IMG/VR virus record: IMGVR_UViG_3300045988_159006
Span: 1-40,811 of that record
Length of the DNA stretch: 40,811 nucleotides
DNA from: a virus
Strand: one strand, 5' to 3'
A model generated the notes under the pieces. That model made no database searches. It saw only the letters and a program-made list of their open reading frames with translations, and was not told the origin of the DNA. The position numbers and the translations under genes were made by a program. Below, piece after piece: positions 5,619-33,701 of the stretch. The number at the start of each line of letters is the position of its first letter. The stretch's first letter is position 1.

Positions 5619-5936
5619 ATGACGAAGCTCAGCTACTTGGAAGAGGATGCTGCCCTGATTGTGGAGAACCTGCCGGAAGGGTTCGAAGCAACAGCCGAGG
5701 CGGCACCGCTTTTCCTGATCTACGCGGTGCTGATGCGTGCTAAAGGCATCTACACGACGCTGGAAGACGTCCACGATGCGTGGGCTGCTTGGCGCACCAC
5801 CACCAACCCAAACCATAGCGATTTAGTGCCCTTCGGCCAGCTTGATGCAGAAACCAGGTCGTTGGATCGCCCGTTCCTTCACGCAATCCATGCGGCAGCC
5901 CACATCCGAAACAGCCAAACCGAAAAGGAGTCATAA
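5619..5936 (+). CDS. Hypothetical protein
   Basis: 105 aa. RBS aaggag lies 7 nt upstream of the ATG. Confidence 0.6.
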   Translation: MTKLSYLEEDAALIVENLPEGFEATAEAAPLFLIYAVLMRAKGIYTTLEDVHDAWAAWRTTTNPNHSDLVPFGQLDAETRSLDRPFLHAIHAAAHIRNSQTEKES

Positions 5937-6600: not shown

Positions 6601-7410
6601 ATGGACAACAAGATCACACCATTCACATTCAACGATATCGAGGTGCGGGTTATTACCCGCGGCGGTGTCCCTTGGTGGGTTGCCGCCGATGTGGCCCACG
6701 CACTGGGGTACCGTGACGCGGGCAGGATAACCCGGTACGTGCGAGACCATCAAAAGGGGTCACAAAAATTGTGTACCCTTGGCGGCTCACAAGAGCTGCA
6801 GGTCATCAATGAGGCTGGCCTATACATGGCTATCATGAAATCCCATTCCCCACATGCCGAGAAGTTTCAGGATTGGGTGACCGAAGAAGTTTTGCCGGCG
6901 ATTCGGTCGCATGGTGGTTATCTCACCCCGGAGGCGACAGCCCAAGCGCTGTCTGACCCGGATTTCATTATCCGCTTGGCCACGCAGTTGAAGGAGGAGC
7001 GGGCCCAGCGTTTGGAGTTGGAAACCCGGGTGGAAGAAGCCGCGCCCAAGGTGATTTTTGCTGATGCTGTGAGCGCATCGACCACCTCGATCCTGGTAGG
7101 GGATTTGGCGAAGATCCTCAAAGGCAACTGTATTGATATTGGTGCTAACCGGCTCTTCACCTGGCTGCGGGCCCATGGATACCTCACCTCCCGCCGTGGT
7201 GCTGATTGGAACAGCCCCACCCAGAAAGCCATGGAATTAGGTCTCTTCGAGATTAAAGAAACCGTCATCACCCACGCCGATGGGCATATCACGGTTAACA
7301 AAACGCCGAAAGTCACGGGTAAAGGCCAACAATATTTTGTTGCTCGTTTCCTTGACGGCCGGTTCGATATCAACGACACAGGCGTCACAGTGACGAAACA
7401 AGGAGTATAA
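6601..7410 (+). CDS. Bro-N / KilAC-domain phage antirepressor
   Basis: 269 aa. Bro-N motif FTFNDIEVRVITRGGVPWWVAADVAHALGY. C-terminal KilAC/ANT-like region ILVGDLAKIL...ANRLFTWLRAHGYL. Confidence 0.8.
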   Translation: MDNKITPFTFNDIEVRVITRGGVPWWVAADVAHALGYRDAGRITRYVRDHQKGSQKLCTLGGSQELQVINEAGLYMAIMKSHSPHAEKFQDWVTEEVLPAIRSHGGYLTPEATAQALSDPDFIIRLATQLKEERAQRLELETRVEEAAPKVIFADAVSASTTSILVGDLAKILKGNCIDIGANRLFTWLRAHGYLTSRRGADWNSPTQKAMELGLFEIKETVITHADGHITVNKTPKVTGKGQQYFVARFLDGRFDINDTGVTVTKQGV

Positions 7411-7414
7411 AGGA

Positions 7415-7591
7415 ATGACCACGAGCACCCCCACCTACGAATCCCGCCTAGCACTACGATCCCTCCGCAGGCACGCCGCAGGCAAAAAGACCGGGCGGGC
7501 TGGGGTACGGGCCATGGAAGCCCTTGGATACGTCACCGAGGACGGCACTATCACCCCGGCCGGCAACCACGCCCTACACGGCGAAAAATAG
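7415..7591 (+). CDS. Small hypothetical protein (58 aa, below ORF-track cutoff)
   Basis: ATG at 7415 preceded by aaggagtataaagga. The frame is open to TAG at 7589-7591 and fills the gap between flanking genes. Confidence 0.4.
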   Translation: MTTSTPTYESRLALRSLRRHAAGKKTGRAGVRAMEALGYVTEDGTITPAGNHALHGEK

Positions 7592-7600
7592 GCGGTACCT

Positions 7601-7843
7601 ATGATAAAGCACCCGGAAATCCGTGATGCCCTCTACGAAAATGAGAAAAACAAACTCCGGCTCGAAATGAAACGCGAACGCCTCCAGGCGGCTAACCGCT
7701 GCTGCGCGCTGGAAGCCACCGGATACCACCCGCACCAGCAAATACATATTTGCGCCAGGCGCAGCGGGCACCGCGGCGGCCACCACGACTACGACACCGG
7801 ATTCCACTGGAAATGGGACAAAGAAGAAGGAACAACGAAATGA
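7601..7843 (+). CDS. Hypothetical protein
   Basis: 80 aa. Its stop overlaps the next start (ATGA at 7840-7843). Confidence 0.5.
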   Translation: MIKHPEIRDALYENEKNKLRLEMKRERLQAANRCCALEATGYHPHQQIHICARRSGHRGGHHDYDTGFHWKWDKEEGTTK

Positions 7844-8274
7844 CACACCCCTCAATCCAGCAAATGCTAGACAACCTGAAGTATCTCCGGGAAGAAACAA
7901 CCCTCCTAGATGAGAAGGATGAAAAACACCTACGGGTGGTGTCCCGCTGGATAGATTTCCTGCTAGACGATACCGACTACCAAGAGATGCGAAACCAGCC
8001 TGAACTCCTAGACAAACCCGACGACTATGGGACGCTCGTGACGTTCCTTCCTGCCCTGCCAGGGATCGGAGAAGGATCAAAATACATTATCGAGATCAGC
8101 CATCAAGGACCCGACGATATCACCATCACCATCAGTGACGACTGCCAGTATGGCACCTGCAAAATCACGCAGAAAAACCTCTACCAGCTAGCCCGAATGG
8201 CGCTAGTCATCCTCCTACAGACGGAAAACCTTAAAACCAGAGAATGGAACAAAAATGAACGCCCCGGCAAATAG
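7840..8274 (+). CDS. Hypothetical protein, paralog A of a tandem pair
   Basis: ATG at 7840 in ORF 7750-8274. Shares ...H(Q/C)GPD(D/Y)I...IT(Q/R)..LY(Q/R)LA...L..L with the next gene. Confidence 0.55.
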   Translation: MTHPSIQQMLDNLKYLREETTLLDEKDEKHLRVVSRWIDFLLDDTDYQEMRNQPELLDKPDDYGTLVTFLPALPGIGEGSKYIIEISHQGPDDITITISDDCQYGTCKITQKNLYQLARMALVILLQTENLKTREWNKNERPGK

Positions 8275-8641
8275 CCTAGCGCCGATGCTGGAGGCCATCG
8301 GCCGGCTCAAAAAATACGCCCCCTCAGAGCCCTTGGACCGCCAAGACATCAACACGATCATTGATACAATCGAGGCTCTGACCGACAGCCCAACCTACCA
8401 GCCAACAGACAGCGTAGGATACGGCAGGCTCGACGAAGAAGGCTACAGGGACGGGCTCTTAGTGCTACAAAATGGCGCACTGCAGGGATTCGTGATGGTT
8501 GACCACTGCGGCCCTGACTATATCATCCTGAGGACGGAAACTAAGCGAGATGCCCACCACATCACCCGGGATCAGCTCTACCGGCTAGCCGCCGGTGTCC
8601 TCACGGTACTAGCACACGTCGATTACCCCGACCAAAAATAA
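8255..8641 (+). CDS. Hypothetical protein, paralog B of a tandem pair
   Basis: 128 aa. VDHCGPDYIILRTETKRDAHHITRDQLYRLAAGVLTVLAH aligns with ISHQGPDDITITISDDCQYGTCKITQKNLYQLARMALVILLQ of the preceding gene. Confidence 0.55.
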   Translation: MNAPANSLAPMLEAIGRLKKYAPSEPLDRQDINTIIDTIEALTDSPTYQPTDSVGYGRLDEEGYRDGLLVLQNGALQGFVMVDHCGPDYIILRTETKRDAHHITRDQLYRLAAGVLTVLAHVDYPDQK

Positions 8642-8676
8642 GTAGAACAAACTTTCCAATCTGCGGATTATTTTGC

Positions 8677-9111
8677 TTACCCTGCGTACAAAGGGTCATG
8701 TCGCCCAGCTAGCTCCGTAGCTTCGAGGAGCAACCGTTCTGATACCCCGGCGCGCCGGGCTTTGGTGATGGTGGCGCCAAGCTCGGTTTTGGCCTGTTCG
8801 TGTGCTTCTGTGGCTTGTTTGAGTGCCCTTGAGGTTTCTTGGAAGGCTACAAGGCTATCGCTTACTGCTGCTAAGTGCTTGTTTGATGCGGCGTCGAGTG
8901 TCAACAGTTCGACGGGAATGCCCAGTGTTTCGGCTATTTTCATCGCCTCCGCCAACCTCGGTTCCCGTTCTCCGGCTTCGATACGCCGAAGTACAGTCAT
9001 GTGCATTTTGAGCCCATTTGCTTCTAGTCGTCGTCGCATTTCTAGTTGCGACCAGCCGGCTTTTTGCCTGAATTGGGCGAGATTTTGCCCAAAAATGTTC
9101 GATTCCGCCAT
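8677..9111 (-). CDS. XRE-family HTH repressor-like protein with helical C-terminal domain
   Basis: HTH LAQFRQKAGWSQLEMRRRL...LRRIEAGEREP. The ATG at 9111 is preferred over the TTG at 9135 because a TTGAAC-17-TATGAT promoter ends 6 nt upstream of it. Confidence 0.7.
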   Translation of the reverse strand: MAESNIFGQNLAQFRQKAGWSQLEMRRRLEANGLKMHMTVLRRIEAGEREPRLAEAMKIAETLGIPVELLTLDAASNKHLAAVSDSLVAFQETSRALKQATEAHEQAKTELGATITKARRAGVSERLLLEATELAGRHDPLYAG

Positions 9112-9117
9112 GTGTAG

Positions 9118-9146
9118 ATCATATCGCCCGCACAATATGTGTTCAA
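9118..9146 (-). promoter_or_regulatory. Sigma-70/SigA-type promoter giving a leaderless mRNA for the XRE repressor
   Basis: On the minus strand: TTGAAC (9146-9141), 17-nt spacer, TATGAT (9123-9118), 6 nt, then ATG (9111). Confidence 0.55.
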
Positions 9147-9211
9147 CACCTTATGTGCTCAAGTATGTATTCAATATGAATTATGTAGTCACTTCAATAT
9201 GGGTGAATGCA

Positions 9212-9240
9212 TTGACACAAGATGTAATAATCTGTAAAAC
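9212..9240 (+). promoter_or_regulatory. Candidate rightward promoter for the replication module
   Basis: TTGACA (9212-9217), 17 nt, TAAAAC (9235-9240) in an AT-rich divergent region. The -10 element is imperfect. Confidence 0.35.
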
Positions 9241-9300
9241 TATTTAAGCGACCGAAATCCGCTAACCACAAACCAATAAACCCCCAGCTTCCAGCGTGTT

Positions 9301-9318
9301 GCTAGCAAAAGCTAGCAA
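9301..9318. repeat. Two GCTAGCAA repeats just upstream of the initiator-like gene
   Basis: gctagcaa at 9301 and 9311 (10-bp phasing), 28 nt before the ATG at 9346. Confidence 0.45.
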
Positions 9319-9345
9319 GCTGCCACCACCTAAAGGAGACCCATT

Positions 9346-10701
9346 ATGGCAACGAAAACCGCCACCGCCCCCAAAGATGACCGGCTTTTTATCCGTATCA
9401 CTCTCGATTTTTTCGATAGCGAAAAGGTGTTTCCACTATCGCCAGCCGCCAAGCTGGCCTTCATCGAGATGATCGCGTGGTCAGCCCGTCAGCATACTGA
9501 CGGGCGAATCAGGAAGCGGCTAGCACTTGCTAGGTGGACGCCAGGAGTTGTCGAAGAGTTGCTAGATAGTGATCCTGAACGCCCGCTACTAGCCGAGGGC
9601 GAAAACGATTATTTCATCCATGACTATGCGGAGCATCAGCAAACCACCGCCGATATCGAGGCGGTGCGTGAAGCCCGGCGCGCTGCTGGCCGTAAAGGTG
9701 GGCTTGCTAAAGCCGCAGCTCAAAAGGGTGTTTCTAGCAAAAAGGTAGCAAAAGCTAGCAAGCCGCTAGCAAAACCTGCCGAGAAAGAGAATGAGAAAGA
9801 GAACTATAAAAAGAAAGGGGAAAGAAAAACCCGCACCACGGTAGCAGCCCCCGTTGCGCTTTGCCCCGTGCCCGACGCCCCCTCCCCCTCTCCTCAAATT
9901 GAAATTGGGTTGGCCCCTGATGGGGTGGCGCCTGCTACCGCAGTCGGCCACCCTGCCGCATCGGAGTCTCAAGAGCCGAAGCCGGTGGGCGCCCCGCGGC
10001 CGGTGGTGGTTGATCCCCAGTCTGCGGTAGAGCCCGCGCCTGCTCTGGTTCTTGAGGATCCGTGGGCTGGGCTGCCCGACCTTGCCGGCCACCAAGCCAT
10101 CGACACGGATCGTGCTGATAGCCGGGTGCCGGCCTGTCTCAGCCTCACCAGTGAGAAAACCGCGACCGCGAAGGATCAGGCCGTGGTTGCTGCCGTCCGG
10201 GCGTACCAGGTGATCGGCACCCCTGCGGAGTGGTCGGCTCCTGACGACCCGCGGTGCCGGAAACACGCTTACCTGCCGCGGGAAGAAGTGCCGCCGTGTC
10301 GTAACTGCATGCGGGCCCGGCGGTGGTTTGAGCAGCGGGCTGCTGCGGAAAAACAAGCAAAGTTGGCTGCTATCCACGCCTGTCCTTTGTGCGATGAGCT
10401 TGGCTATGTAGCGGTCAAGAACGCCGCAGGTGAAACGACGGGTGTGGCGCACTGCGATCACACTGGCGAGCTGCCGAAACCGAAAGCAGAGACCCAGCCC
10501 CGCCCTGCTGGCCGGGGCATGCCCGCACACCTACGCAAGAAACTCGACAACATCCTGGGGCGTAAAACTGCCCAAGAAACCGCCCCAGAAGCCCCGCAGA
10601 AGCCCGAAACCCCCAACACCCATGCCGATACCCTAAACCATGATCCAAACCCGGCAGAAGAGCGCTCAGGTGAACTCGTAGCAGTGGGGGTTGCATCATG
10701 A
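9346..10701 (+). CDS. Putative replication initiator / replisome-organizer-like protein with Pro/Ala-rich linker and C-terminal Cys cluster
   Basis: 451 aa. The N-terminal region (FIRITLDFFDSEKV...AKLAFIEMIAWSARQHTDGRI) resembles DnaD/phage replisome-organizer N-domains. C-terminal CRKH..CRNC...CPLC...HCDH. Internal iteron-like repeats are present. Confidence 0.45.
   Translation: MATKTATAPKDDRLFIRITLDFFDSEKVFPLSPAAKLAFIEMIAWSARQHTDGRIRKRLALARWTPGVVEELLDSDPERPLLAEGENDYFIHDYAEHQQTTADIEAVREARRAAGRKGGLAKAAAQKGVSSKKVAKASKPLAKPAEKENEKENYKKKGERKTRTTVAAPVALCPVPDAPSPSPQIEIGLAPDGVAPATAVGHPAASESQEPKPVGAPRPVVVDPQSAVEPAPALVLEDPWAGLPDLAGHQAIDTDRADSRVPACLSLTSEKTATAKDQAVVAAVRAYQVIGTPAEWSAPDDPRCRKHAYLPREEVPPCRNCMRARRWFEQRAAAEKQAKLAAIHACPLCDELGYVAVKNAAGETTGVAHCDHTGELPKPKAETQPRPAGRGMPAHLRKKLDNILGRKTAQETAPEAPQKPETPNTHADTLNHDPNPAEERSGELVAVGVAS
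9733..9774. repeat. Four helically phased (T/G)(C/G)TAGCAA(A) repeats inside the initiator-like gene (candidate iterons / ori)
   Basis: TAGCAA starts at 9735, 9746, 9756 and 9767 (10-11 bp spacing). Same motif as upstream at 9301-9318. Confidence 0.45.
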
Positions 10702-24404: not shown

Positions 24405-24635
24405 ATGGCGAAGTACGTGCCGAACAAAGCGGCGCTGAAAGCGCTACTCAAAGACCCCATGACCCAAGGGATCGTAGTCGACCACGCCGAACAAATAGCA
24501 GCCCGTGCCGGTGACGGTTTCGTCTCCTCCTACCAGATGGGCAAAACCCGCCACCGCTGCATCATCTACGCCGACACCTGGTCAGCCAAACGCCGAGAAG
24601 CCAGAGACAACATCCTCACCCGAACCCTAGGCTAA
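24405..24635 (+). CDS. HK97 gp10-like tail-head joining protein
   Basis: ATG at 24405 in ORF 24258-24635. MAKYVPNKAALKALLKDP...AEQIAARA fits the gp10 family N-terminus. Confidence 0.55.
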   Translation: MAKYVPNKAALKALLKDPMTQGIVVDHAEQIAARAGDGFVSSYQMGKTRHRCIIYADTWSAKRREARDNILTRTLG

Positions 24636-24659
24636 CCAGCCTTCTGGAAGGAGGCCCAT

Positions 24660-25013
24660 GTGACCACCACCGCCACCACGCTAGTTATTGCCGAGCTGGC
24701 GCGCAGGGTAGGGGTGCCGGTATCTAGCCGCATGCCGGGCACCCCGAAACCGCAAGCCTTCATCATTGTTTCCCGCATCGGCGGCGGCATGGAGGACTGG
24801 GCACTCCGCAACCCCCGGTTTCTGGTGGAGTGCTACGCCCACACCGAACTAGACGCTGAAGCCCTGGCCGAAACAGCCTACGAAGCGTGGGCGCGGATGC
24901 GGTCCGCCCAGATCCAATCCACCACCATAGACACCCTCACCAGGTACGAAGACCCCGACCCGAAGCTCTACCGCTTCCAATTCACCGGTGGCGTGCGGCT
25001 CCTAGCCCACTAG
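24660..25013 (+). CDS. Tail terminator / tail completion protein
   Basis: 117 aa with GTG start after ggaaggagg. Lies immediately upstream of the major tail gene. Confidence 0.5.
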   Translation: MTTTATTLVIAELARRVGVPVSSRMPGTPKPQAFIIVSRIGGGMEDWALRNPRFLVECYAHTELDAEALAETAYEAWARMRSAQIQSTTIDTLTRYEDPDPKLYRFQFTGGVRLLAH

Positions 25014-25092
25014 CCGGCCCCTGGCGCGGCAGCAGGGGACACCATCCTGCCGCAACTCCCTTTTCCAACATTCCTGATTTAGGAGAATACCC

Positions 25093-25968
25093 ATGGCTAT
25101 CAACATTCAAAACGCCTTCGTGGCCACCCCACCCATCGACGGCGGCGTGTATTTCAATGCCCCAGTCGATACCCCGCTGCCAAAAACTGCCCTCGAAACC
25201 CTCCATAAGGACTTCAAAGATCACGGCGCTGTAGGCGAAGACGGCTTCACTCACACCATTAACCGGGAAACCAGCACCGAAAAAATGTTCGGCGGTGACG
25301 ACTGGGTAGACACCCAAACCTCGTATACCGAAACAGTCGTTCTCACCCTGCTCGAAGACGGCAACACTAATGTGCTCCGATCTTGCTTCGGCGATGCAAA
25401 CGTTATCGAAAAAGCAGCCACCGACAAGCACGGCCGCCAGATCACCGTGTACCACACTGCTGAACGGCTACCGCTCAAGCGCCACGTTGTGAAAGCTGTT
25501 TCCGGTGAAAAAGCTAAAACCTTGGTCGTACCGGTCGGCCGGATCACTACCGTGGAAAAAACCGCTGAGGTCCATTCCGCATCCACGAAATACAACGTCA
25601 CGATCACCGCTTTCAAGGGCCCCGCCGAATTCAAATTCGCAAACTCCTTCGAGCTGCGGGACGACGGCATGGTCGACCCCAACACCCCAGACCCCGACAC
25701 CCAAGACAAGACCGTGACCCTCCCCGGCGGCGTTACAGGCGGCACCTTCACCCTCTCCGTCGACGGCCACGCCACCGCCGAACTAGCGTTTAACGCCACC
25801 GCCGACACCGTGCAGGCCGAGCTACGCAAACTCACAGGCGCCACCACCGCCACCGTCACCGGTAATGCTGGCGGGCCCTACACCATCAAGGATGTTACCG
25901 GGGCCCTCACCGCCGACGGTACTAAACTCACCGGTGGCGCGGGCACCACCATCACCGTAAACCCCTAA
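25093..25968 (+). CDS. Major tail protein with C-terminal Ig-like extension
   Basis: 291 aa after RBS aggaga. Position fits. The C-terminal part (TVTLPGGVTGGTFTLSVDG...TVQAELRKLTG) looks like a decoration domain. Confidence 0.8.
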   Translation: MAINIQNAFVATPPIDGGVYFNAPVDTPLPKTALETLHKDFKDHGAVGEDGFTHTINRETSTEKMFGGDDWVDTQTSYTETVVLTLLEDGNTNVLRSCFGDANVIEKAATDKHGRQITVYHTAERLPLKRHVVKAVSGEKAKTLVVPVGRITTVEKTAEVHSASTKYNVTITAFKGPAEFKFANSFELRDDGMVDPNTPDPDTQDKTVTLPGGVTGGTFTLSVDGHATAELAFNATADTVQAELRKLTGATTATVTGNAGGPYTIKDVTGALTADGTKLTGGAGTTITVNP

Positions 25969-26192
25969 ACCCCTCCCCGGTAACTCCGGGCGGCGGAGGG
26001 AACAACAACGGCGGCGGGGCTGTACCGCCGCCCCCGAAACCGGACACCCGCCGACGCGCTGTATCATTCGGTTGGGAAGACACCTCATCGAAAACCTACA
26101 ACTGGGAAGAAACCCTCCAAAAAGTAGTAGACGCGGGTGGCACCACCATCGATCTAGCGGTAGGCCGCCCCGAATGGCTGCTCTCCCCCGAA

Positions 26193-27035
26193 GTGCCCTC
26201 AGACAGTGGGCTCACATCATCCCTATCAGCAGCCGAAGGCGACCCCATCGCAGGGATCATCAACACCGCCCGCGCAGCTGGTATCACAAGCATCTACCTC
26301 ACCCTGGATGCCATGGCCACCACCACCCTGGCGAAACCCGAATACCAAGACCTCCGGGCAGTATCCAGAGACGGCACCATCCGAAACGATTTGGGCAGCG
26401 CCTACGCCCTCACCAAAGGACACATCGGTGTCATGCTAGAGAACGCCGCACGGCACCTCGCGGCCCGCTACGGCAACCGCATCAACGGCATCATCCTCAC
26501 CGAAATCCACTGGGACTCCGGGTCATTTTCAGATAAAGACTTGGAGCTGTTCAAACAAGACACCGGCGAGACGGACTGGACCCGCCGCGGCGACGGCACC
26601 CCCCACGAGGGCCCTAAAGAGCTGGCGTGGTTCGGCGATAAAATGGCCGAAGTCGCAGGCCGCATCAAACGCGCTATCGGTAATGCCCAACTGGTTTTCG
26701 ACGTGCGAGTCAACTGGGCCAACCCGGTTGCTGGCCGGCCCGACAGCGGACACGACTATGCCAAACTGTTGCAGCATGCCGATCTGCTGCAGCCGTGGGT
26801 CTATTTCGATGCTGGGCAGGCTGGAAAAGCGGCGCCCCTGGTGGAGGCGCTCACCGCACAATGGCCGGGCAAGATCCGCCCCTCCATCGGCCTGTGGGGT
26901 GCTGGCGGCACCACCATCCCCGCAACCGACCTAGACGCGGCTATCACCTCACTACGCGACCAGCCGTGGCTGCAAGTCACGCCAGCATCGAAACTCACCA
27001 CTGCCCACTGGCAGGTGCTGAAACACTGGCGCTAA
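26193..27035 (+). CDS. Hypothetical enzyme-like protein (possible TIM-barrel glycoside-hydrolase-like). The frame is open from 25926 with no canonical start.
   Basis: GTG at 26193 is the first start codon, but the frame is open and coding-like for 267 nt upstream. Inserted between the major tail gene and the chaperones. Confidence 0.55.
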   Translation: MPSDSGLTSSLSAAEGDPIAGIINTARAAGITSIYLTLDAMATTTLAKPEYQDLRAVSRDGTIRNDLGSAYALTKGHIGVMLENAARHLAARYGNRINGIILTEIHWDSGSFSDKDLELFKQDTGETDWTRRGDGTPHEGPKELAWFGDKMAEVAGRIKRAIGNAQLVFDVRVNWANPVAGRPDSGHDYAKLLQHADLLQPWVYFDAGQAGKAAPLVEALTAQWPGKIRPSIGLWGAGGTTIPATDLDAAITSLRDQPWLQVTPASKLTTAHWQVLKHWR

Positions 27036-27049
27036 CCACACTGAAAAAA

Positions 27050-27085
27050 GGGCCGCGGGCAAAACCCCGTTACCGCCCGCGGCCC
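27050..27085. terminator. 11-bp GC hairpin, A-run upstream (U-tract on minus strand)
   Basis: gggccgcgggc-(14 nt)-gcccgcggccc, preceded by aaaaaa. Confidence 0.4.
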
Positions 27086-27120
27086 TCCCACCCTCTATCA
27101 ACCACACCTAAGGAGCCATC

Positions 27121-27483
27121 ATGGCATTCGATATCTCCGGATTCGATAACATTGAATTCAACATCCCTGCAGGCAAAGACAAAAAAGTTACCATCGCCAT
27201 CCCCCCAGTTGATTGTTTGTACCCGACAGACATTACCGCCGTCCAAAACGAAGCCGAAAAACAGCACATCGGCAAAGACTCTGTTGAAATTACGCGGCTC
27301 TTCCTGCTCCACTTCAATAGCACCCAGGTGAAGAAGGATGCCATCAGCAAGTTGGTACAACGCCAGCTGGTGGAAATCGACCGCATCTGGGGGCAGGAAT
27401 CAGGTATTCTGTTGGGGGAATCCTTGCCCTCCACCAGTATGCCTTCGGGGGAGACCCCGAGCTCACCGACGCCCTCCGAGTAG
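27121..27483 (+). CDS. Tail assembly chaperone (G-like)
   Basis: 120 aa between the major tail and tape measure genes. Confidence 0.75.
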   Translation: MAFDISGFDNIEFNIPAGKDKKVTIAIPPVDCLYPTDITAVQNEAEKQHIGKDSVEITRLFLLHFNSTQVKKDAISKLVQRQLVEIDRIWGQESGILLGESLPSTSMPSGETPSSPTPSE

Positions 27484-27842
27484 ACCTCCTCCACATCGGA
27501 TACTCACTCAGCAACGTAGGGCGCACCTACCGGTGGAGCGACCTTAAGGCATTCCTCAAACATCTACCAGCCACATCCCACCTCCACACCTACCTCAACC
27601 CCGCAGCCGCCGAAGCCGCCGCCTGGGTGACACCCACCAACCAAATCCTTGGCGCACTCTTCGACCAGCAGTACATCCTGGCCCTGGCCCGCGCCGGGAA
27701 AAACACAAATGGTGTTGGGGGTCTTATTCAACAAACCATCGAGGGTATCGAGGCCTCCCACCAGCAGGTGAGCCGGCCGCATAGGCGGGAGCTGACCGCC
27801 GCAGAGATCAGGCAAAAGGTCAGGGAAAAGCACCACATCTAG
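27121..27842 (+). CDS. Tail assembly chaperone -1 frameshift product (GT-like, about 240 aa)
   Basis: The -1 frame is open from 27321 to 27842 without a start codon and ends 25 nt before the tape measure gene. G5 runs at 27390-27394, 27414-27418 and 27446-27450 are candidate slip sites. Confidence 0.6.
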
Positions 27843-27866: not shown

Positions 27867-30800
27867 ATGGGCGCAGAGCTCGGCACCGGCTACATCTCGA
27901 TCATCCCCGAGGTGAGTAAAATCAGCCCCACCATCGCCAAAGCACTGGGGAGTGTGGAAAGCGAAGCCGAGCGCCGCGGCGGCTCGTGGGGAAGCAAGCT
28001 CGCCGCTGGCGTGGGCAAAACCCTGAAAGCCGGCGCGCTCGCCACCGGTGTGGCGGCAGGTGGGCTCATCGGCACCGCCATGGCCAAAGGCATGGGCCGC
28101 CTCACCGCTATCGAAAACGCCCAACAGAAACTCCTCGGCCTAGGCAACGACACCAAGACCGTTGCCGGGGTCATGAACGATGCGCTTTCCTCAGTGAAAG
28201 GCACCGCCTTTGGACTGGGGGAGGCGGCATCCGTTGCCGCAGGCCTAGTTGCCGCAGGCATTAAACCCGGCCAGCAGCTGGAAACCACCCTGAAAACCGT
28301 GGGCGACACCGCTGCTATTGCCGGCCGGAGCATGCAAGACGTCGGCGTTATCTTCGGCTCGATTGCCGCCCGCGGCAAACTCCAGGGCGATGATATGCTG
28401 CAGCTCATGGCGTCGGGCATTCCCGTGCTCCAGCTGCTCGCCAAACAGACCGGAAAAACCTCCGCCGAAATCTCGGATATGGTTTCCAAAGGCAAGATCG
28501 ACTTCGAAACCTTCGAGAAAGCCATGCGCGCCGGCATGGGTGGGTCCGCCCTGAAAATGGGCGAATCCTTCACAGGTGCCGCAGCCAATGCCCAGGCAGC
28601 CCTGGGCCGGTTGGGTGCTACCGCCCTGAAACCATTCTTCGGCCTGGCGAAGGACGGCCTGGTGGCCGCCACCGGCGCCATCGACGGGTTGGAAACCAAA
28701 ATCAAACCAGTTGCAGCCGACATTGATACTTTCCTCCAGCAGCGCCTAGTGCCAGGGCTCAAAGACGCCAAGAGCGCTGTGACGAATTTTATGCAGTCCG
28801 ATCAGGGCAAAGGCATGCTTACCGGCGTCCAGGCGGCCTTCACCGATGCACTTGATGCAGGTAAAGCCTTGGCGCCCGTGGTATCTACCGTGGCTACTGC
28901 TCTGGGGCAGGCATCCGCAGCCCTCGGTGTTAGCACCTGGAATATTTTCCTCGGTACTTTGCATGCAGCATCTGGCGTGCTCGTTGCCCTGGCCCCGTCC
29001 CTCCAGTCTGTCGCTGACCTGCTGAAAGCCCACCCCGGGTTATTGGCGGCCGCTATGGCAGGCTGGGCGGCGTTCCGCACCGTGCCAGGTATTGTTGGCG
29101 GTATCACCACCACCGTGGGCCAGTACACGTCCAAGCTGTCCGAGATGCGGGGGCACGTGTCTAGCCTGTCTGAAATGCGGGGACAAATATCCAGCATCCA
29201 AAAATTCTATAGGGACGCTGGTGTGGAAATGGACCGGGTTGGGGCCACCACACACTACCTGACCGGTGCACAAAGTGGTTTGGCTGCCGCCGTGCTTAAG
29301 GCTGAGGCCGCGGTCCAGCAGGGTTCCCCGGCATTGAAAACATTTGCGGAAAAGCACACCGAGGCAGCCCACACCGCCCGCGCTGCCCTGGGTTCGATCG
29401 GTGACGCAGCTGTTGGTGTGGCCCGTGGCGGTTTCTCCCTGCTGAAATCCGGTGCCGAAGGCCTACTAGGCGCCCTCGGAGGGCCGTGGGGCCTGGCGCT
29501 CACAGGCGCCGCCGCAGCCCTTACCCTGTTCGCCAGCGAAAACGAAAAAGCAGCTAAGGCTGAACAGCAGCACAAGAACAATGTTGACGACCTCAAGAAT
29601 TCCTTGAACGGAATTGAGGAGGCAGCAACCCGGTCGGTGATGGTACAGCGCGCATCCAGCGAAGGCCTGATAGACCTGGCCAGCAAGGCAGGTATCGCAT
29701 CCAGCACCGTGGTGGACGCCATGATGGGGCAAGCCTCCGGCCTGGAAGCCATCCAAGGCAAAGCCGAATCCATCGTCACCGCGTTCATGCACGCCCACCC
29801 CCAGCTGCAGCAAGCCAAAATCTCCGCCGACGATCTAGAAGCCGCCCTCAACGGCAACAAAGATGCCGCCTTGGGTGTGGCCACCGCCCTCGCCGATCTT
29901 GATGATGGCAGCTTAAAAGCCAAGCAGTCCGCCGCCGAATCCTTCGCGAAATGGAAGGAAGGCCTAACTGATGCGGACCTGGCGACATTAAAGCTAGCCG
30001 AGTCCACCCGGGGCGCCAACAACGATCTGGAAGAGGCAACCAGACAGCACGAAGCCGAAGCAGCAGCCATGACAAACGCCGCTAAGGAGGCTGATGCTGC
30101 GGCTCAGATCTACTCAATCCTGGGCGACAAAATCAAATCCATCCCGGATAACAAAACGATCAAAGTTGAATCGGATGCGATCACCGATGAGACCAAACAA
30201 AAGCTGGAGGCCATGGGGGCGAAAGTCTCCGAGCCCTTCGAGGGGCAGGTGACCATTGATTTCCCCGACGCGTTCTCCATCATTTCCTTACTGGATCAGA
30301 TGGGGGTCAAACTCTCCAGTCTCGACGGCTATATCCATATTGATAATGCTGAGGTGCCCGGCACTATCGAAAAACTCGATGCCCTAGGGCTGAAAACGAA
30401 AACCCTCCCCGGCGGGAAAGTTGTTATTGACTCCAACGACCCAGATGTTAAAACCCGCATGCTTGACCTGGGTATCCTGGTTAAAGACAAGCGCACCGGT
30501 GAAGTCAAAATCAACGACAACGTGCCAGAAGTCATCAAGCGGATCCATGGCCTGAGCGGGCAAAACACCACATCTCGCCACACGATTTCGGTGGAAACCG
30601 TGTATGTGGGTGGTGGCAGGCCAGCGCTTCTTCCTGATGGCAGCCCAGCCCGGCGCGTTATGGGTGGTGTCGTAGGGTTCGCAGCAGGTGGCCTGTTCGG
30701 CACTCCGGCAGGGTATCGGCTGCCCCTCTCCGGGCCCGGTACCACCGAGGTCGATGGTTTCCAGGGCGTCGATAGGCAGGGCAGGCCCACAGCCCGGGTT

Positions 30801-33701
30801 GATGCTGGGGAGTGGGTTATCAACCGCAGGTCATCGGCCAAGCACCATAATTTGTTGCGTGCGATTAATGATGATTCCCCCAAGCTCAACAAGATCCTAG
30901 GGGGCGTGCAGGCTCTGGCTGATGGTGGGGTCGTCACCCCGGGCCAGCTTTTGCGTTTCGCTAAAGGTGAAACCGTCAACGGTAAGAAGGCCCCGCGGTC
31001 TCTCGAAGGCGCACCGTATGTTTTCGGCGGTGGCCTACTCGCTAACTGGGGTGACTGTAGCGGTGCGATGAGTGGCCTGGCCGCACTAGCTGTGGGGTGG
31101 CCACTCGACGGCCGCAAATTCGCCACTATGGACGAAGGCCCCGTGCTGGCCCGCATGGGGTTCAGCACCGGCCTGGGCAGTGGCGGCCCCCGGTTTTCCA
31201 TCGGCTGGCTCAACGGCGGCCCCGCAGGTGGCCACACCTCAGGCACCATTCATTTCACCGACGGCCAAGCTGTCAACGTCGAAATGGGTGGCGGCCGCGG
31301 CGATGGTCAAATCGGCGGTGGGGCAGCACCAGCATCCCACCCCCAGTACACCAACCATGCCTACCTGCCGCTCATCGCCGGGCAGATCGTCACCATCAAC
31401 GGCAAAGACTACGACCCTGCCGACTTTTTGAACCTTGGGGATGATATCGAATCCACGTCTGTGGATGGGGTGAAAACCAGCCGCGGTAACGTTTCGTGGG
31501 GCAAAGCCCAGTCCTTGTTTGACCAGGCCAAAAGGTACGTGCAGTACGGGCCGAAGTTCGACACCGGCGGCCGGTGGCCATCCGGCGTTCGAGGACGGAA
31601 CGAATCCGGCGCCGATGAGCTAGTGCTCACAAACCAGCAGTGGCGGCACCAATCGTCCATCGCCAAGGCCCTACCTGAAATTGGGAAACAGAACGCTACT
31701 GCGGCGAAAATCCTCATGGCAGCAGGCGAAAAATTCGACAAAGCCGCTGGGGAAATCTCCACCGCGGCAAAGCTCTTCGCCCACGACGCCGAAGACGCTC
31801 GGGTGGTCGTGCAAGCCGAAGGCCGCCATTTCGGTGGCGGCTGGTTGGACTCCGCCGAAGTTGTGAGGGACGCCGAAAAGGGCCTGTATGATCTGCGGAA
31901 AAAGATCGCCACCGAGACTGACGGCATCAGCAAAGCCGAAAAAGAGCTTGCCGACGCCAAGAAGGAGCTGGCGAAAACCGAGAAAGAAGGCGCCGCGGTA
32001 TCCAAGGCTGATAGGCGAAAACTGGAGGACGCCGAAAAATCCCTGGCTGACGCCAGGAAAAAAGGCAAAGCCGACCGCATCGCCGACGCCGAGAAGAAAC
32101 TCGCCAGAGTACGGGAAGATATTGGCGACAACCTGGAAAAATCCACCGACAAAAACGCCAAAGCGGTCAAATCCGCCCAGGAAAAGGTCAACAAGGCTGA
32201 GGACAAACTAGCGGCGGCCCGTGCCGCCCAGGCTGAATCCCTCGCTGATCTAGAGGCGGCAGAACGCACGGTGGCGGCATCCCGCTACCAGGCAGCCAGC
32301 GAGATTGCCGAAAAGATCGGCGGCTCCCTCGCAGCCGGCATTGGGCACATCGCAAGTTTTTTCTCTGAAATAGAGAAAGCAGCCGGCATCGTGGACAAGA
32401 CCCGGCAAGAAGTTTCCAAGCTGGAAATGCAGCAGCAAACCAACGCCCTCACCAGGGTGAAAACACTAACTGAGCTGCAGATCAGGGAGCGGGATATAGA
32501 GCGCACCCGTGCCCGCGGCATCGTGAGCATTGCCCAAGCGGAAGCCGCGCTCGCCGAGGCCCGTAAGCAATCCGCCCTCATGGGGTCCACCAGCGTGGAA
32601 GCCATGAAAGGTGCAATTGACCGTTTCTACCGCACCGGTAAATTCACCGTCGAAGATTTGACCGCATCCGTGGTGGCAAACACCAAAGAAATCCAGGCCG
32701 CCGAATGGGGGGTTCGGGTCGCAAGGGCCCAAGCCGCAGTCGACGACCTGGAAGCGGCTAAAGCCCACTCCGACGCCCAGCATGAGGCGCTAGAAGCAAC
32801 GCTGAAACAAACCGCGGCAGCGCAGCTGCTGCGGGCCCAAACCACGGCCCTTGCCGAGCAAACTGCTAGCCTATACGGCATGACTGCCAACCAGGCCCAA
32901 GGCGCATCCAAAGGCTTCGGCGGGGTATCTAAGCTGGTAGGCGGCATCGGTAAGCTCCTAGCCGGCGCCGCCGCTGGGGTTGCTGGGTTCACCGTTGGCG
33001 GGCCACTAGGCGCCCTAGCAGGCGCCGGCATGGCGCTAGGCGGCCTGAAAGATCTAGTGCAGGGCGGCATTGATCTCCACCAAAACAAGGACTCCGTCAA
33101 GGAAGCTTGGAAGAACCTAGGGACGGCTGAAAAAGCCGCCCTGGTTCTGGGGTCCGCGGGCGGTGCCGCTCTCACTATCGGCGGCGGCGTGCTCTCCCAA
33201 CAATACGGAGTAGAAGCCGCCACCGGTGGCGCCAAGCTCGGCGAGCAGTTCATGGAGAGCACGATCGGCGCACTCCAGTATGGTATCAGCGGCAGGATCG
33301 AAAAATCCCAACGCCAAACCGAAGACCGGCTCACCGCTATCCAACGCCAGATCGACCAGAACAACCTCAACCTGGAGCTAGACCGAGCCACCAAGGCGGT
33401 GGAATACCTCCGGCAAAAAGACAAACTGACCGCCGAACTGGAATATGCGAAACTCAAACAAGAGATCGAAAAAACCGACGACGAAAAAGTGCGGAAAGCA
33501 CTCGCCGCCGCCGCGGAAGTAGAACGCCTCCGCTCACTCGCCACAACCACCGAGGTAGCACAAACCGGAGAACTACGGCAGCTCAACGCCACCCTGGCCG
33601 AACTCCTCGCCGTCACAAAACGCTCACTCGCTACCGGCTCCGGGCAAGTCGGCCAGCTATCGGCAGTTGATGCGGTGCGCTACGAGCGAGCCCGAATCTA
33701 G
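27867..33701 (+). CDS. Tape measure protein with embedded NlpC/P60-like motif
   Basis: 1944 aa. Ala/Gly-rich helical protein downstream of G/GT. Internal PYVFGGGLLANWGDCSG (about 31000-31070). Confidence 0.9.
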   Translation: MGAELGTGYISIIPEVSKISPTIAKALGSVESEAERRGGSWGSKLAAGVGKTLKAGALATGVAAGGLIGTAMAKGMGRLTAIENAQQKLLGLGNDTKTVAGVMNDALSSVKGTAFGLGEAASVAAGLVAAGIKPGQQLETTLKTVGDTAAIAGRSMQDVGVIFGSIAARGKLQGDDMLQLMASGIPVLQLLAKQTGKTSAEISDMVSKGKIDFETFEKAMRAGMGGSALKMGESFTGAAANAQAALGRLGATALKPFFGLAKDGLVAATGAIDGLETKIKPVAADIDTFLQQRLVPGLKDAKSAVTNFMQSDQGKGMLTGVQAAFTDALDAGKALAPVVSTVATALGQASAALGVSTWNIFLGTLHAASGVLVALAPSLQSVADLLKAHPGLLAAAMAGWAAFRTVPGIVGGITTTVGQYTSKLSEMRGHVSSLSEMRGQISSIQKFYRDAGVEMDRVGATTHYLTGAQSGLAAAVLKAEAAVQQGSPALKTFAEKHTEAAHTARAALGSIGDAAVGVARGGFSLLKSGAEGLLGALGGPWGLALTGAAAALTLFASENEKAAKAEQQHKNNVDDLKNSLNGIEEAATRSVMVQRASSEGLIDLASKAGIASSTVVDAMMGQASGLEAIQGKAESIVTAFMHAHPQLQQAKISADDLEAALNGNKDAALGVATALADLDDGSLKAKQSAAESFAKWKEGLTDADLATLKLAESTRGANNDLEEATRQHEAEAAAMTNAAKEADAAAQIYSILGDKIKSIPDNKTIKVESDAITDETKQKLEAMGAKVSEPFEGQVTIDFPDAFSIISLLDQMGVKLSSLDGYIHIDNAEVPGTIEKLDALGLKTKTLPGGKVVIDSNDPDVKTRMLDLGILVKDKRTGEVKINDNVPEVIKRIHGLSGQNTTSRHTISVETVYVGGGRPALLPDGSPARRVMGGVVGFAAGGLFGTPAGYRLPLSGPGTTEVDGFQGVDRQGRPTARVDAGEWVINRRSSAKHHNLLRAINDDSPKLNKILGGVQALADGGVVTPGQLLRFAKGETVNGKKAPRSLEGAPYVFGGGLLANWGDCSGAMSGLAALAVGWPLDGRKFATMDEGPVLARMGFSTGLGSGGPRFSIGWLNGGPAGGHTSGTIHFTDGQAVNVEMGGGRGDGQIGGGAAPASHPQYTNHAYLPLIAGQIVTINGKDYDPADFLNLGDDIESTSVDGVKTSRGNVSWGKAQSLFDQAKRYVQYGPKFDTGGRWPSGVRGRNESGADELVLTNQQWRHQSSIAKALPEIGKQNATAAKILMAAGEKFDKAAGEISTAAKLFAHDAEDARVVVQAEGRHFGGGWLDSAEVVRDAEKGLYDLRKKIATETDGISKAEKELADAKKELAKTEKEGAAVSKADRRKLEDAEKSLADARKKGKADRIADAEKKLARVREDIGDNLEKSTDKNAKAVKSAQEKVNKAEDKLAAARAAQAESLADLEAAERTVAASRYQAASEIAEKIGGSLAAGIGHIASFFSEIEKAAGIVDKTRQEVSKLEMQQQTNALTRVKTLTELQIRERDIERTRARGIVSIAQAEAALAEARKQSALMGSTSVEAMKGAIDRFYRTGKFTVEDLTASVVANTKEIQAAEWGVRVARAQAAVDDLEAAKAHSDAQHEALEATLKQTAAAQLLRAQTTALAEQTASLYGMTANQAQGASKGFGGVSKLVGGIGKLLAGAAAGVAGFTVGGPLGALAGAGMALGGLKDLVQGGIDLHQNKDSVKEAWKNLGTAEKAALVLGSAGGAALTIGGGVLSQQYGVEAATGGAKLGEQFMESTIGALQYGISGRIEKSQRQTEDRLTAIQRQIDQNNLNLELDRATKAVEYLRQKDKLTAELEYAKLKQEIEKTDDEKVRKALAAAAEVERLRSLATTTEVAQTGELRQLNATLAELLAVTKRSLATGSGQVGQLSAVDAVRYERARI

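Follow-up and report, generated by a model that had tools for sequence, protein, structure and literature searches.

The DNA analysed here (the window) comprises the 40,811 nucleotides (nt) of IMG/VR record IMGVR_UViG_3300045988_159006, a Corynebacterium phage with a GC content of 58%. The element in question is the junction between its major tail (tube) protein gene and a long open reading frame (ORF) in the -1 frame that lacks a start codon in its upstream part, at which an earlier note had proposed programmed -1 frameshifting (features and coordinates in Table 1). The tail gene product matched PHROG family phrog_117 ('major tail protein', E 4.5e-34) and, by tblastn, 811 actinophage records labelled major tail protein (for example, those of Gordonia phages at 40% identity over the full length), which bore out the naming of the gene in the earlier note; residues 179-289 matched phrog_10909, and residues ~195-291 constituted a C-terminal decoration domain. 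The following genes, for a tail assembly chaperone (27121-27483, phrog_8595) and a tape measure protein (27867-33701), stood in the usual siphovirus order. No tRNA genes were found in the window. Polymorphism was assessed in 34 gapless close relatives from oral metagenomes, representing 29 unique sequences with 89-95% nucleotide identity to the window, from which all variable-site counts and all values of synonymous polymorphism (pS) and of the nonsynonymous to synonymous ratio (pN/pS) were derived. Megablast of positions 24600-27600 against the phage collection and tblastn of the -1 extension against the same collection gave no match. A protein search with the extension retrieved 20 homologues, the extension family being small and separate (197 representative clusters), and scans with a broad alignment returned solely loci of the window type, loci in which the domain is an independent gene, and cellular loci.

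Table 1. Features of the tail gene junction and its surroundings in the window
Feature	Positions	Strand	Remarks
Major tail (tube) protein gene	25093-25968	+	291 amino acids (aa), 30.7 kDa, zero frame; identified by PHROG and tblastn
Nucleotide-constrained block (putative recoding signal)	25957-26050	+	94 nt; shift site, stop, spacer, both hairpins and 18 nt beyond
Candidate shift site A_AAC_CCC	25959-25965	+	Last two sense codons; includes C_CCC tetramer 25962-25965
Linker, -1 frame	25965-26051	+	Gly/Asn/Pro-rich, LNPSPVTPGGGGNNNGGGAVPPPPKPDTR; predicted disordered
Zero-frame stop UAA ('shifty stop' position)	25966-25968	+	Abuts shift site; post-slip codon would be CUA 25965-25967
Hairpin 1	25971-26000	+	~9-10 bp, one bulge; begins 5 nt past last sense codon; encodes PSPVTPGGGG in -1 frame
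Hairpin 2	26010-26032	+	Perfect 8-bp GC stem 26010-26017/26025-26032, 7-nt loop; encodes GGGAVPPP
Glycoside-hydrolase-like (beta/alpha)8 barrel domain, -1 frame	26052-27035	+	Stop codon 27033-27035; from AlphaFold, Foldseek and pN/pS
First in-frame GTG	26193-26195	+	Internal Val codon, extension residue 76; not a plausible start
GC hairpin, perfect 11 bp	27050-27085	+	Just after enzyme ORF; A6 before, no T run after
Tail assembly chaperone G (27121-27483) with -1 frame T extension (open 27321-27842)	27121-27842	+	phrog_8595; separate classical recoding site

The 3' end of the tail gene reads ...ACC GTA AAC CCC TAA, and its last two sense codons form, in the zero frame, the X_XXY_YYZ heptamer A_AAC_CCC directly followed by the stop codon, at the positions at which the earlier note had placed them. 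The heptamer was invariant in all 34 close relatives, which answered the question of its conservation raised there. An X_XXY_YYZ heptamer right before the stop was found in 3 of 315 (0.95%) long open frames in the window, so that the single instance is not compelling by itself and its significance comes from the comparative data. A scan of 25926-25958 detected no other X_XXY_YYZ and no efficient tetramer. As also noted earlier, the -1 frame was open from 25926 through 27035, and the first ATG, GTG or TTG in it was the GTG at 26193; direct codon reading showed no in-frame CTG, ATT, ATC or ATA from the stop up to ~26052, where the domain begins. A slip at the heptamer would join 291 to 356 residues, giving a product recomputed as 647 aa (68.9 kDa, relative to 30.7 kDa for the tail protein), in agreement with the previously estimated size, with a predicted junction ...VNP-L-NPS... 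and fusion-spanning peptides ...TITVNPLNPSPV... and LTGGAGTTITVNPLNPSPVTPGGGGNNNGGGAVPPPPKPDTR.

The start-less upstream part of the -1 ORF, which had been described as coding-like, was clearly under purifying selection. In the tail gene, the fractions of variable sites at the first, second and third codon positions were.163/.125/.562 (25093-25958), with pS 0.244 and pN/pS 0.196 (25093-25956). The start-less part of the domain (26052-26192) gave.149/.085/.426, pS 0.229 and pN/pS 0.153 in the -1 frame, and pN/pS of 1.4 and 4.2 in the other two frames, while the part from the GTG onwards (26193-27032) gave.150/.118/.432, pS 0.162 and pN/pS 0.172. For the linker (25968-26051), pS was 0.005 and pN/pS 1.16, the latter based on too few changes to be interpreted. 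The -1 ORF was intact in 34 of 34 relatives, so that its retention in related phages, left to be checked in the earlier note, could be established. Distant homologues (45-50% identity) aligned from VSFGWEDTS...DLAVGRPEW onward, a motif located upstream of the GTG. In an AlphaFold (AF2) model built from the homologue alignment, the extension formed a (beta/alpha)8 barrel (predicted local distance difference test score (pLDDT) 91, predicted template modelling score (pTM) 0.88), in which strand beta1 comprised extension residues 29-34 (26052-26069), helix alpha1 residues 46-55 and strand beta2 residues 60-67 (26145-26168), preceded by a linker with pLDDT of 45-46 at residues 1-20 and 76 at residues 21-30. 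As beta1, alpha1 and beta2 lie before the GTG at 26193, a product initiated there would lack the first two strands. The start-less stretch is thus genuine coding sequence that is required for the fold.

These data bear directly on whether the enzyme is made as a free protein, whether from GTG 26193, from some other internal codon or non-canonical start, or through reinitiation behind the UAA, with the heptamer being coincidental. Gene callers do list stand-alone proteins: the closest homologue (NCBI P0001, 95% identity) is a 302-aa 'hypothetical protein' of C. matruchotii corresponding to window positions 26127-27035, and BFVD holds a 240-aa entry (A0A8S5Q971). In addition, relatives in which the enzyme is an independent gene use an ATG of their own, and in another locus carrying the domain (L065, described below) an ATG lies 15 nt past the tail gene stop. 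The annotated starts disagree among themselves, however, and that of P0001 is artificial and lies inside the domain; both public annotations are N-terminally truncated and mutually inconsistent. No Shine-Dalgarno sequence or ribosome binding site (RBS) was present ahead of GTG 26193 or for the -1 ORF as a whole, and 12 of the 29 unique relatives had no in-frame ATG, GTG or TTG before 26193, the remaining ones carrying scattered synonymous GTG or TTG codons at 26061, 26127 or 26178, within structural elements. The segment that a GTG-26193 product would lack is under equally strong purifying selection, and the ATG in L065 is buried in a 27-bp hairpin. Synthesis as a free protein is therefore unlikely. 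From the sequence comparisons, the enzyme appears as a protein that is under selection and needs its N-terminal part, yet has no conserved route of initiation, that is, as a functional -1 ORF without an initiation signal of its own.

The junction itself showed a marked constraint at the nucleotide level. Across the block at 25957-26050, just 4 sites were variable among the 29 unique relatives: 25984 (loop) and 25994 (bulge) in hairpin 1, 26019 (loop) in hairpin 2, and 26031, also in hairpin 2, where the change turns a G-C pair into G-U. Pooled pS over 25968-26051 was 0.005, compared with 0.16-0.24 on both flanks (~40-fold lower), and the site thus displays the suppressed synonymous variation of -1 frameshift sites; an RNA recoding element that overlaps a coding region would be expected to show such constraint. 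Hairpin 1 (CCCTCCCCG.../...CGG-C-GGAGGG, minimum free energy -17.1 kcal/mol) was found in the position given for it in the earlier note, but did not hold up as a statistically notable structure on its own (z -1.4; z-scores here and below are relative to dinucleotide shuffles). Hairpin 2 (GGCGGCGG/CCGCCGCC) had not been reported there. Searches of Rfam yielded only sub-threshold snoRNA noise on the minus strand, and a terminator scan revealed no plus-strand T-tract terminator 3' of the tail gene, which means that hairpin 1 does not qualify as an intrinsic terminator of the classical kind. A minus-strand gene at 25822-26088 was considered as the cause of the conservation and rejected, the conserved block being far shorter than that ORF.

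The same arrangement recurred on other tail proteins. In three further loci (L009, L064 and L065) the same domain came directly downstream of a tail-tube gene, again in a -1 frame that was already open at the last codons of that gene. In all four lineages the main stem of a hairpin began 5 nt after the last sense codon. The tail gene ends in A_AAC_CCC_UAA in the window (CCCTCCCCG... with bulge), in G_GGA_AAC_UAA in L009 (10-bp hairpin CCCCAGGATC/GATCCTGGGG, z -4.3), in GAA_AAA_UAG, containing A_AAA, in L064 (hairpin CCCCAGGGGC/GCCCCTGGGG, z -2.7), and in G_GGC_CCC_UAG in L065 (27-bp hairpin, z -5.4, the lowest four predicted pairs of which begin at the stop codon itself). A downstream structure at a spacing of 5-9 nt was accordingly present in each of the four lineages, with a z-score of just -1.4 in the window. 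The hairpins of L064 and L009 differed by two compensatory pair changes, and the linker peptides of the two loci shared 64% identity when read in the -1 frame. By blastp, the tail proteins fell into three families (window, L009/L064 and L065) without meaningful similarity to one another, the sole cross-family match being that between L065 and the window (23% identity, E 1.6e-5). Given the heptamer background of ~1%, it is very unlikely that three unrelated tail genes would by chance end in this way, each with a hairpin and a homologous -1 ORF. No further relatives of the L009, L064 and L065 types turned up in scans of viral, genome and metagenome collections.

The combined data make it likely, with good though not complete confidence, that a tube-enzyme fusion arises by programmed -1 frameshifting on the two final sense codons of the tail gene. 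A minority of ribosomes would slip by -1 on A_AAC_CCC, evade the UAA and translate a flexible Gly/Pro linker followed by a 38-kDa glycoside-hydrolase-like triose-phosphate isomerase (TIM) barrel, while the majority would terminate; the latter would produce the 30.7-kDa tube subunit, and the shifted fraction the 68.9-kDa fusion. The fusion would co-assemble into the tail tube, and a few subunits would thereby expose the enzyme at the tail surface. The slip could occur in tandem (tRNA-Asn from AAC to AAA and tRNA-Pro from CCC to CCC), or tRNA-Pro in the P site could slip on C_CCC during the slow decoding of the stop in the A site; the hairpin 5 nt downstream would oppose forward movement. In all four lineages the first two bases of the last sense codon are identical to the base just before that codon, and the stop follows immediately, which suggests a P-site slip with the stop codon in the A site and the nearby hairpin pushing the ribosome back. 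Both re-pairings of the tandem slip are known elsewhere (Sharma et al. 2014, PMC4066793), and C_CCC and A_AAA belong to the six shift-prone tetramers. In E. coli reporters with no, moderate and strong stimulator, respectively, -1 shifting amounted to 0.07, 0.13 and 0.98% for AAACCCC, to 0.05, 0.09 and 0.42% for GGGCCCC, and to 0.16, 0.22 and 0.89% for GGGAAAC. We infer that the efficiency is low, in the order of 1%, corresponding to few fusion subunits per tail.

Recoding by another route, such as transcriptional slippage by RNA polymerase, a +2 shift, a hop across the stop codon or -1 slippage elsewhere in 25926-25965, would also place the extension behind the tail protein, and the -1 frame is indeed open already from 25926. 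The homopolymer runs in this region measure 3-5 nt, and runs of that length are insufficient for efficient transcriptional slippage. The interval 25926-25958 offers no alternative X_XXY_YYZ or efficient tetramer, and what recurs across the lineages is the last-codon position together with a stem starting within ~5 nt. CCC_UAA is also the classic +1 'shifty stop' of the SPP1, 936 and Listeria tail genes; an SPP1-like +1 reading at this position was rejected, as the +1 frame carries no coding signature. That frame was open for ~190 codons (25964-26536) and Arg/His-rich, and +1 slippage here would give a junk-tailed tube protein. Taken together, these alternative routes are very unlikely.

The likely -1 frameshift fusion is related to, and distinct from, the known extended tail proteins. 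In SPP1, gp17.1* arises by +1 at CCC_UAA and carries an 87-aa fibronectin type III (FN3) extension at a 3:1 ratio (PMC6316719); Tsh of Listeria phages PSA, A118 and A500 is recoded by +1 at CCC_UGA (PMC5009743); and in lactococcal 936 phages the major tail protein (MTP) is extended to MTP-TpeX by +1 at CCC_UAG, adding a carbohydrate-binding module of ~22 kDa, as demonstrated by western blot and immunogold (PMC4759559, PMC6669499). The window resembles these systems in that recoding would occur at the last sense codon of a tail-tube gene (phrog_117) beside the stop, several of them with CCC, and, as proposed here, in that a minority of extended subunits would co-assemble and display a surface module, those of the known cases being thought to contact host glycans. 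The extension of TpeX is likewise large and follows an immunoglobulin (Ig)-like domain. In contrast, the known cases shift by +1 (CCC to CCU/A) and need no downstream hairpin, whereas in the window the ORF is in -1, the slip run permits re-pairing backwards, and a hairpin follows after 5 nt; and their extensions are of FN3, Ig or carbohydrate-binding type with 87 to ~230 aa, whereas that of the window is an enzyme-like barrel of 356 aa. The precedent of gp17.1* that the earlier note had invoked is therefore apt for the extension of a tail protein but not for the direction of the shift, and relative to known frameshift-extended tail proteins both the hairpin-assisted -1 slip and the enzyme-type barrel would be new. 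With the -1 sites of dnaX, IS3/IS911 and phage G/GT, the window shares an X_XXY_YYZ motif, a 5-nt spacer and a stem-loop and, as proposed, two products with a common N-terminus in a fixed ratio. It differs from these in that its motif is weak (Pro and Asn codons rather than A_AAG) and abuts the zero-frame stop, in that its trans-frame part exceeds the zero-frame protein in size, and in that its product would join a structural protein to an enzyme, where the classical sites serve a chaperone, polymerase or transposase.

Relatives of the independent-gene kind (type C: among others L012, L010, L039-L059 and L083, of the P0010, P0003 and P0007 types) were oral Corynebacterium phages that carry the enzyme, 45-50% identical in the domain, as an ordinary gene in the equivalent slot, after the tail-tube gene and ahead of the chaperone genes. 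There the gene has an ATG and a strong AAGGAGG RBS of its own, and with respect to the tail gene it can occupy any of the three reading frames; the tail gene ends in TCC_TAG or GGC_TGA and shows no slip pattern. The earlier note had held that relatives with an independent start and RBS would speak against the fusion; such relatives do exist, but differ in architecture, their enzymes bearing an extra N-terminal module of 100-130 aa of minor-tail or head-fibre type (phrog_2012, phrog_5711) that the window gene lacks. Set against the fusion proposed for the window, this dedicated anchor implies that the enzyme would be attached to the virion by one route or the other. The spacer and hairpin in L012 (5925-6000) are homologous to the window linker DNA at 25969-26040 (ccctcGccggtaac..., ccgccgcccc), and the L012-type hairpin begins 1 nt past the stop, with no slip site. 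Judging from this homology, the hairpin probably predates the frameshift and was co-opted later, and the comparison suggests that the frameshift layout arose when the anchor module was deleted and the spacer co-opted.

The same homology with a non-coding spacer and hairpin could mean that the window ORF is a decaying remnant of a type C ancestor from which anchor, RBS and start have been deleted, the domain being unexpressed and the open -1 frame of the spacer a matter of luck. Degraded copies with short open frames and lost N-termini were in fact present in large bacterial contigs (L106, L108 and L116), likely as parts of decaying prophages. In the window and its relatives, however, the ORF is intact in every genome at 89-95% identity, with pN/pS of 0.15-0.17 and clear third-position periodicity, and the start-less layout recurs on two other tail protein families; a remnant is thus extremely unlikely. 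Two further observations were made in L010. The tail-tube TGA is followed (5788-5931) by a small hairpin and 47 open in-frame Pro-rich codons (...PPQAPPQPAPSPPEPAPP...), which may represent an extension made by readthrough of the stop or what is left of a linker. At 7188-9921, the interval from the tail-tube gene to the chaperone genes also contains genes for a Spherulin4-family protein (629 aa) and a glycerophosphodiester phosphodiesterase (283 aa), and the slot seems to collect envelope-active enzymes.

The extension had earlier been thought to be a possible glycoside-hydrolase-like TIM barrel, and the fold comparisons agree with this. The best Foldseek match of the model was Cwp19 of C. difficile, a GHL10-type peptidoglycan hydrolase (5oq3, E 1.2e-12), followed by the C-terminal poly-N-acetylglucosamine (PNAG) hydrolase domain of PgaB (4p7q, E 1.1e-10), at template modelling (TM) scores of 0.64-0.67 and just 13-14% sequence identity; further matches were GH20, GH42 and beta-amylase barrels. 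The BFVD entry, from an uncultured siphovirus and 95% identical, had been automatically named 'PgaB, glycoside hydrolase, PNAG'. Searches of Pfam, NCBIfam and PHROGs with the extension gave no hit, a sequence-profile search of the PDB gave noise only, and the sole match to the Pfam family GHL10 (PF02638) came from a distant member (P0095), at 25.1 bits, below the threshold of 27.9. The domain is accordingly set beside PgaB-C (GH153) and the GHL10 domain of Cwp19 by its predicted (beta/alpha)8 fold, and differs from them in its low identity and lack of a sequence-profile hit. Four acidic residues were invariant in the family (D114, E179, D191 and D245 in extension numbering). Among the 197 family representatives, no natural in-frame fusion of tail protein and enzyme was found, the long members being fusions to GT2, malectin or head-fibre anchors.

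The cellular members of the family were lipoproteins. Two of the cellular loci (L119:922-5002 and L120:839-4993) consisted of a conserved operon for a PIG-L deacetylase, an ATP-grasp protein and a GT2 processive glycosyltransferase, with the homologue last, and other cellular homologues were fused, one (P0091) to a GT2 synthase and one to a malectin domain. This linkage to a GT2 synthase and a deacetylase parallels that of PgaB to PgaC, and by analogy the operon looks like an uncharacterised actinobacterial exopolysaccharide system comparable to PgaC/PgaB. By the same analogy, the substrate is likely a partly deacetylated hexosamine (PNAG-like) exopolysaccharide, and the phage enzyme would most likely cut or bind such a polymer on the C. 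matruchotii surface or in the plaque matrix; a purely binding role for the barrel is possible.

Several points weigh against the proposed frameshift, the support for which is computational. In E. coli the heptamers AAACCCC, GGGCCCC and GGGAAAC shift weakly, reaching no more than 1% even with a strong pseudoknot, and every proven case of tail-protein recoding is +1 and not -1. Among the recurrent loci, L064 lacks a full heptamer, and the linkers of L065 and L009 hold an in-frame ATG or GTG that could permit some independent initiation. The window hairpins were no better than shuffled GC-rich sequence (z -1.4 to -1.9, hairpin 1 being at -1.4), and the extreme conservation of the linker could partly stem from a short recombination tract. 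Finally, a homologous hairpin also trails the tail gene in the L012-type relatives that do not frameshift, so that its ancestral role may have been a different one.

Downstream of the enzyme ORF, the GC hairpin at 27050-27085 may be a terminator without U-tract or a stabiliser ending the tail-enzyme unit. The window's own G/GT site lies 1.2 kb downstream of the slip site; the G/T overlap contains no canonical X_XXY_YYZ, and only its G5 runs (~27408-27412 and ~27447-27451) could serve as slip sites.

On a wider view, the four lineages may belong to a hitherto unannotated 'backward shifty-stop' class, consisting of a -1 slip site, a stop and a hairpin, that has arisen or persisted on at least three tail protein families of actinobacterial phages and studs the tube with a few copies of an active depolymerase of PNAG-like exopolysaccharide, an extrapolation that we put forward tentatively and rate at slightly less than an even chance. 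If it is correct, the whole tail shaft, and not merely the tip, would degrade the matrix in dental-plaque biofilm, and in evolution the enzyme would alternate between a frameshift fusion and a minor-tail anchor of its own, offering a natural comparison of one enzyme with two modes of virion attachment. Among the systems covered by this search, the window would hold the first tail-tube subunit to gain an enzyme-type instead of an adhesin-type extension through recoding, and to do so by a -1 instead of a +1 shift. The public annotations of the enzyme gene look wrong, and standard gene callers would miss the class entirely. The domain also defines a small uncharacterised hydrolase-like family tied to GT2 exopolysaccharide synthases in Actinobacteria, which could be a source of candidate anti-biofilm enzymes against Corynebacterium matruchotii, a scaffold species of dental plaque.

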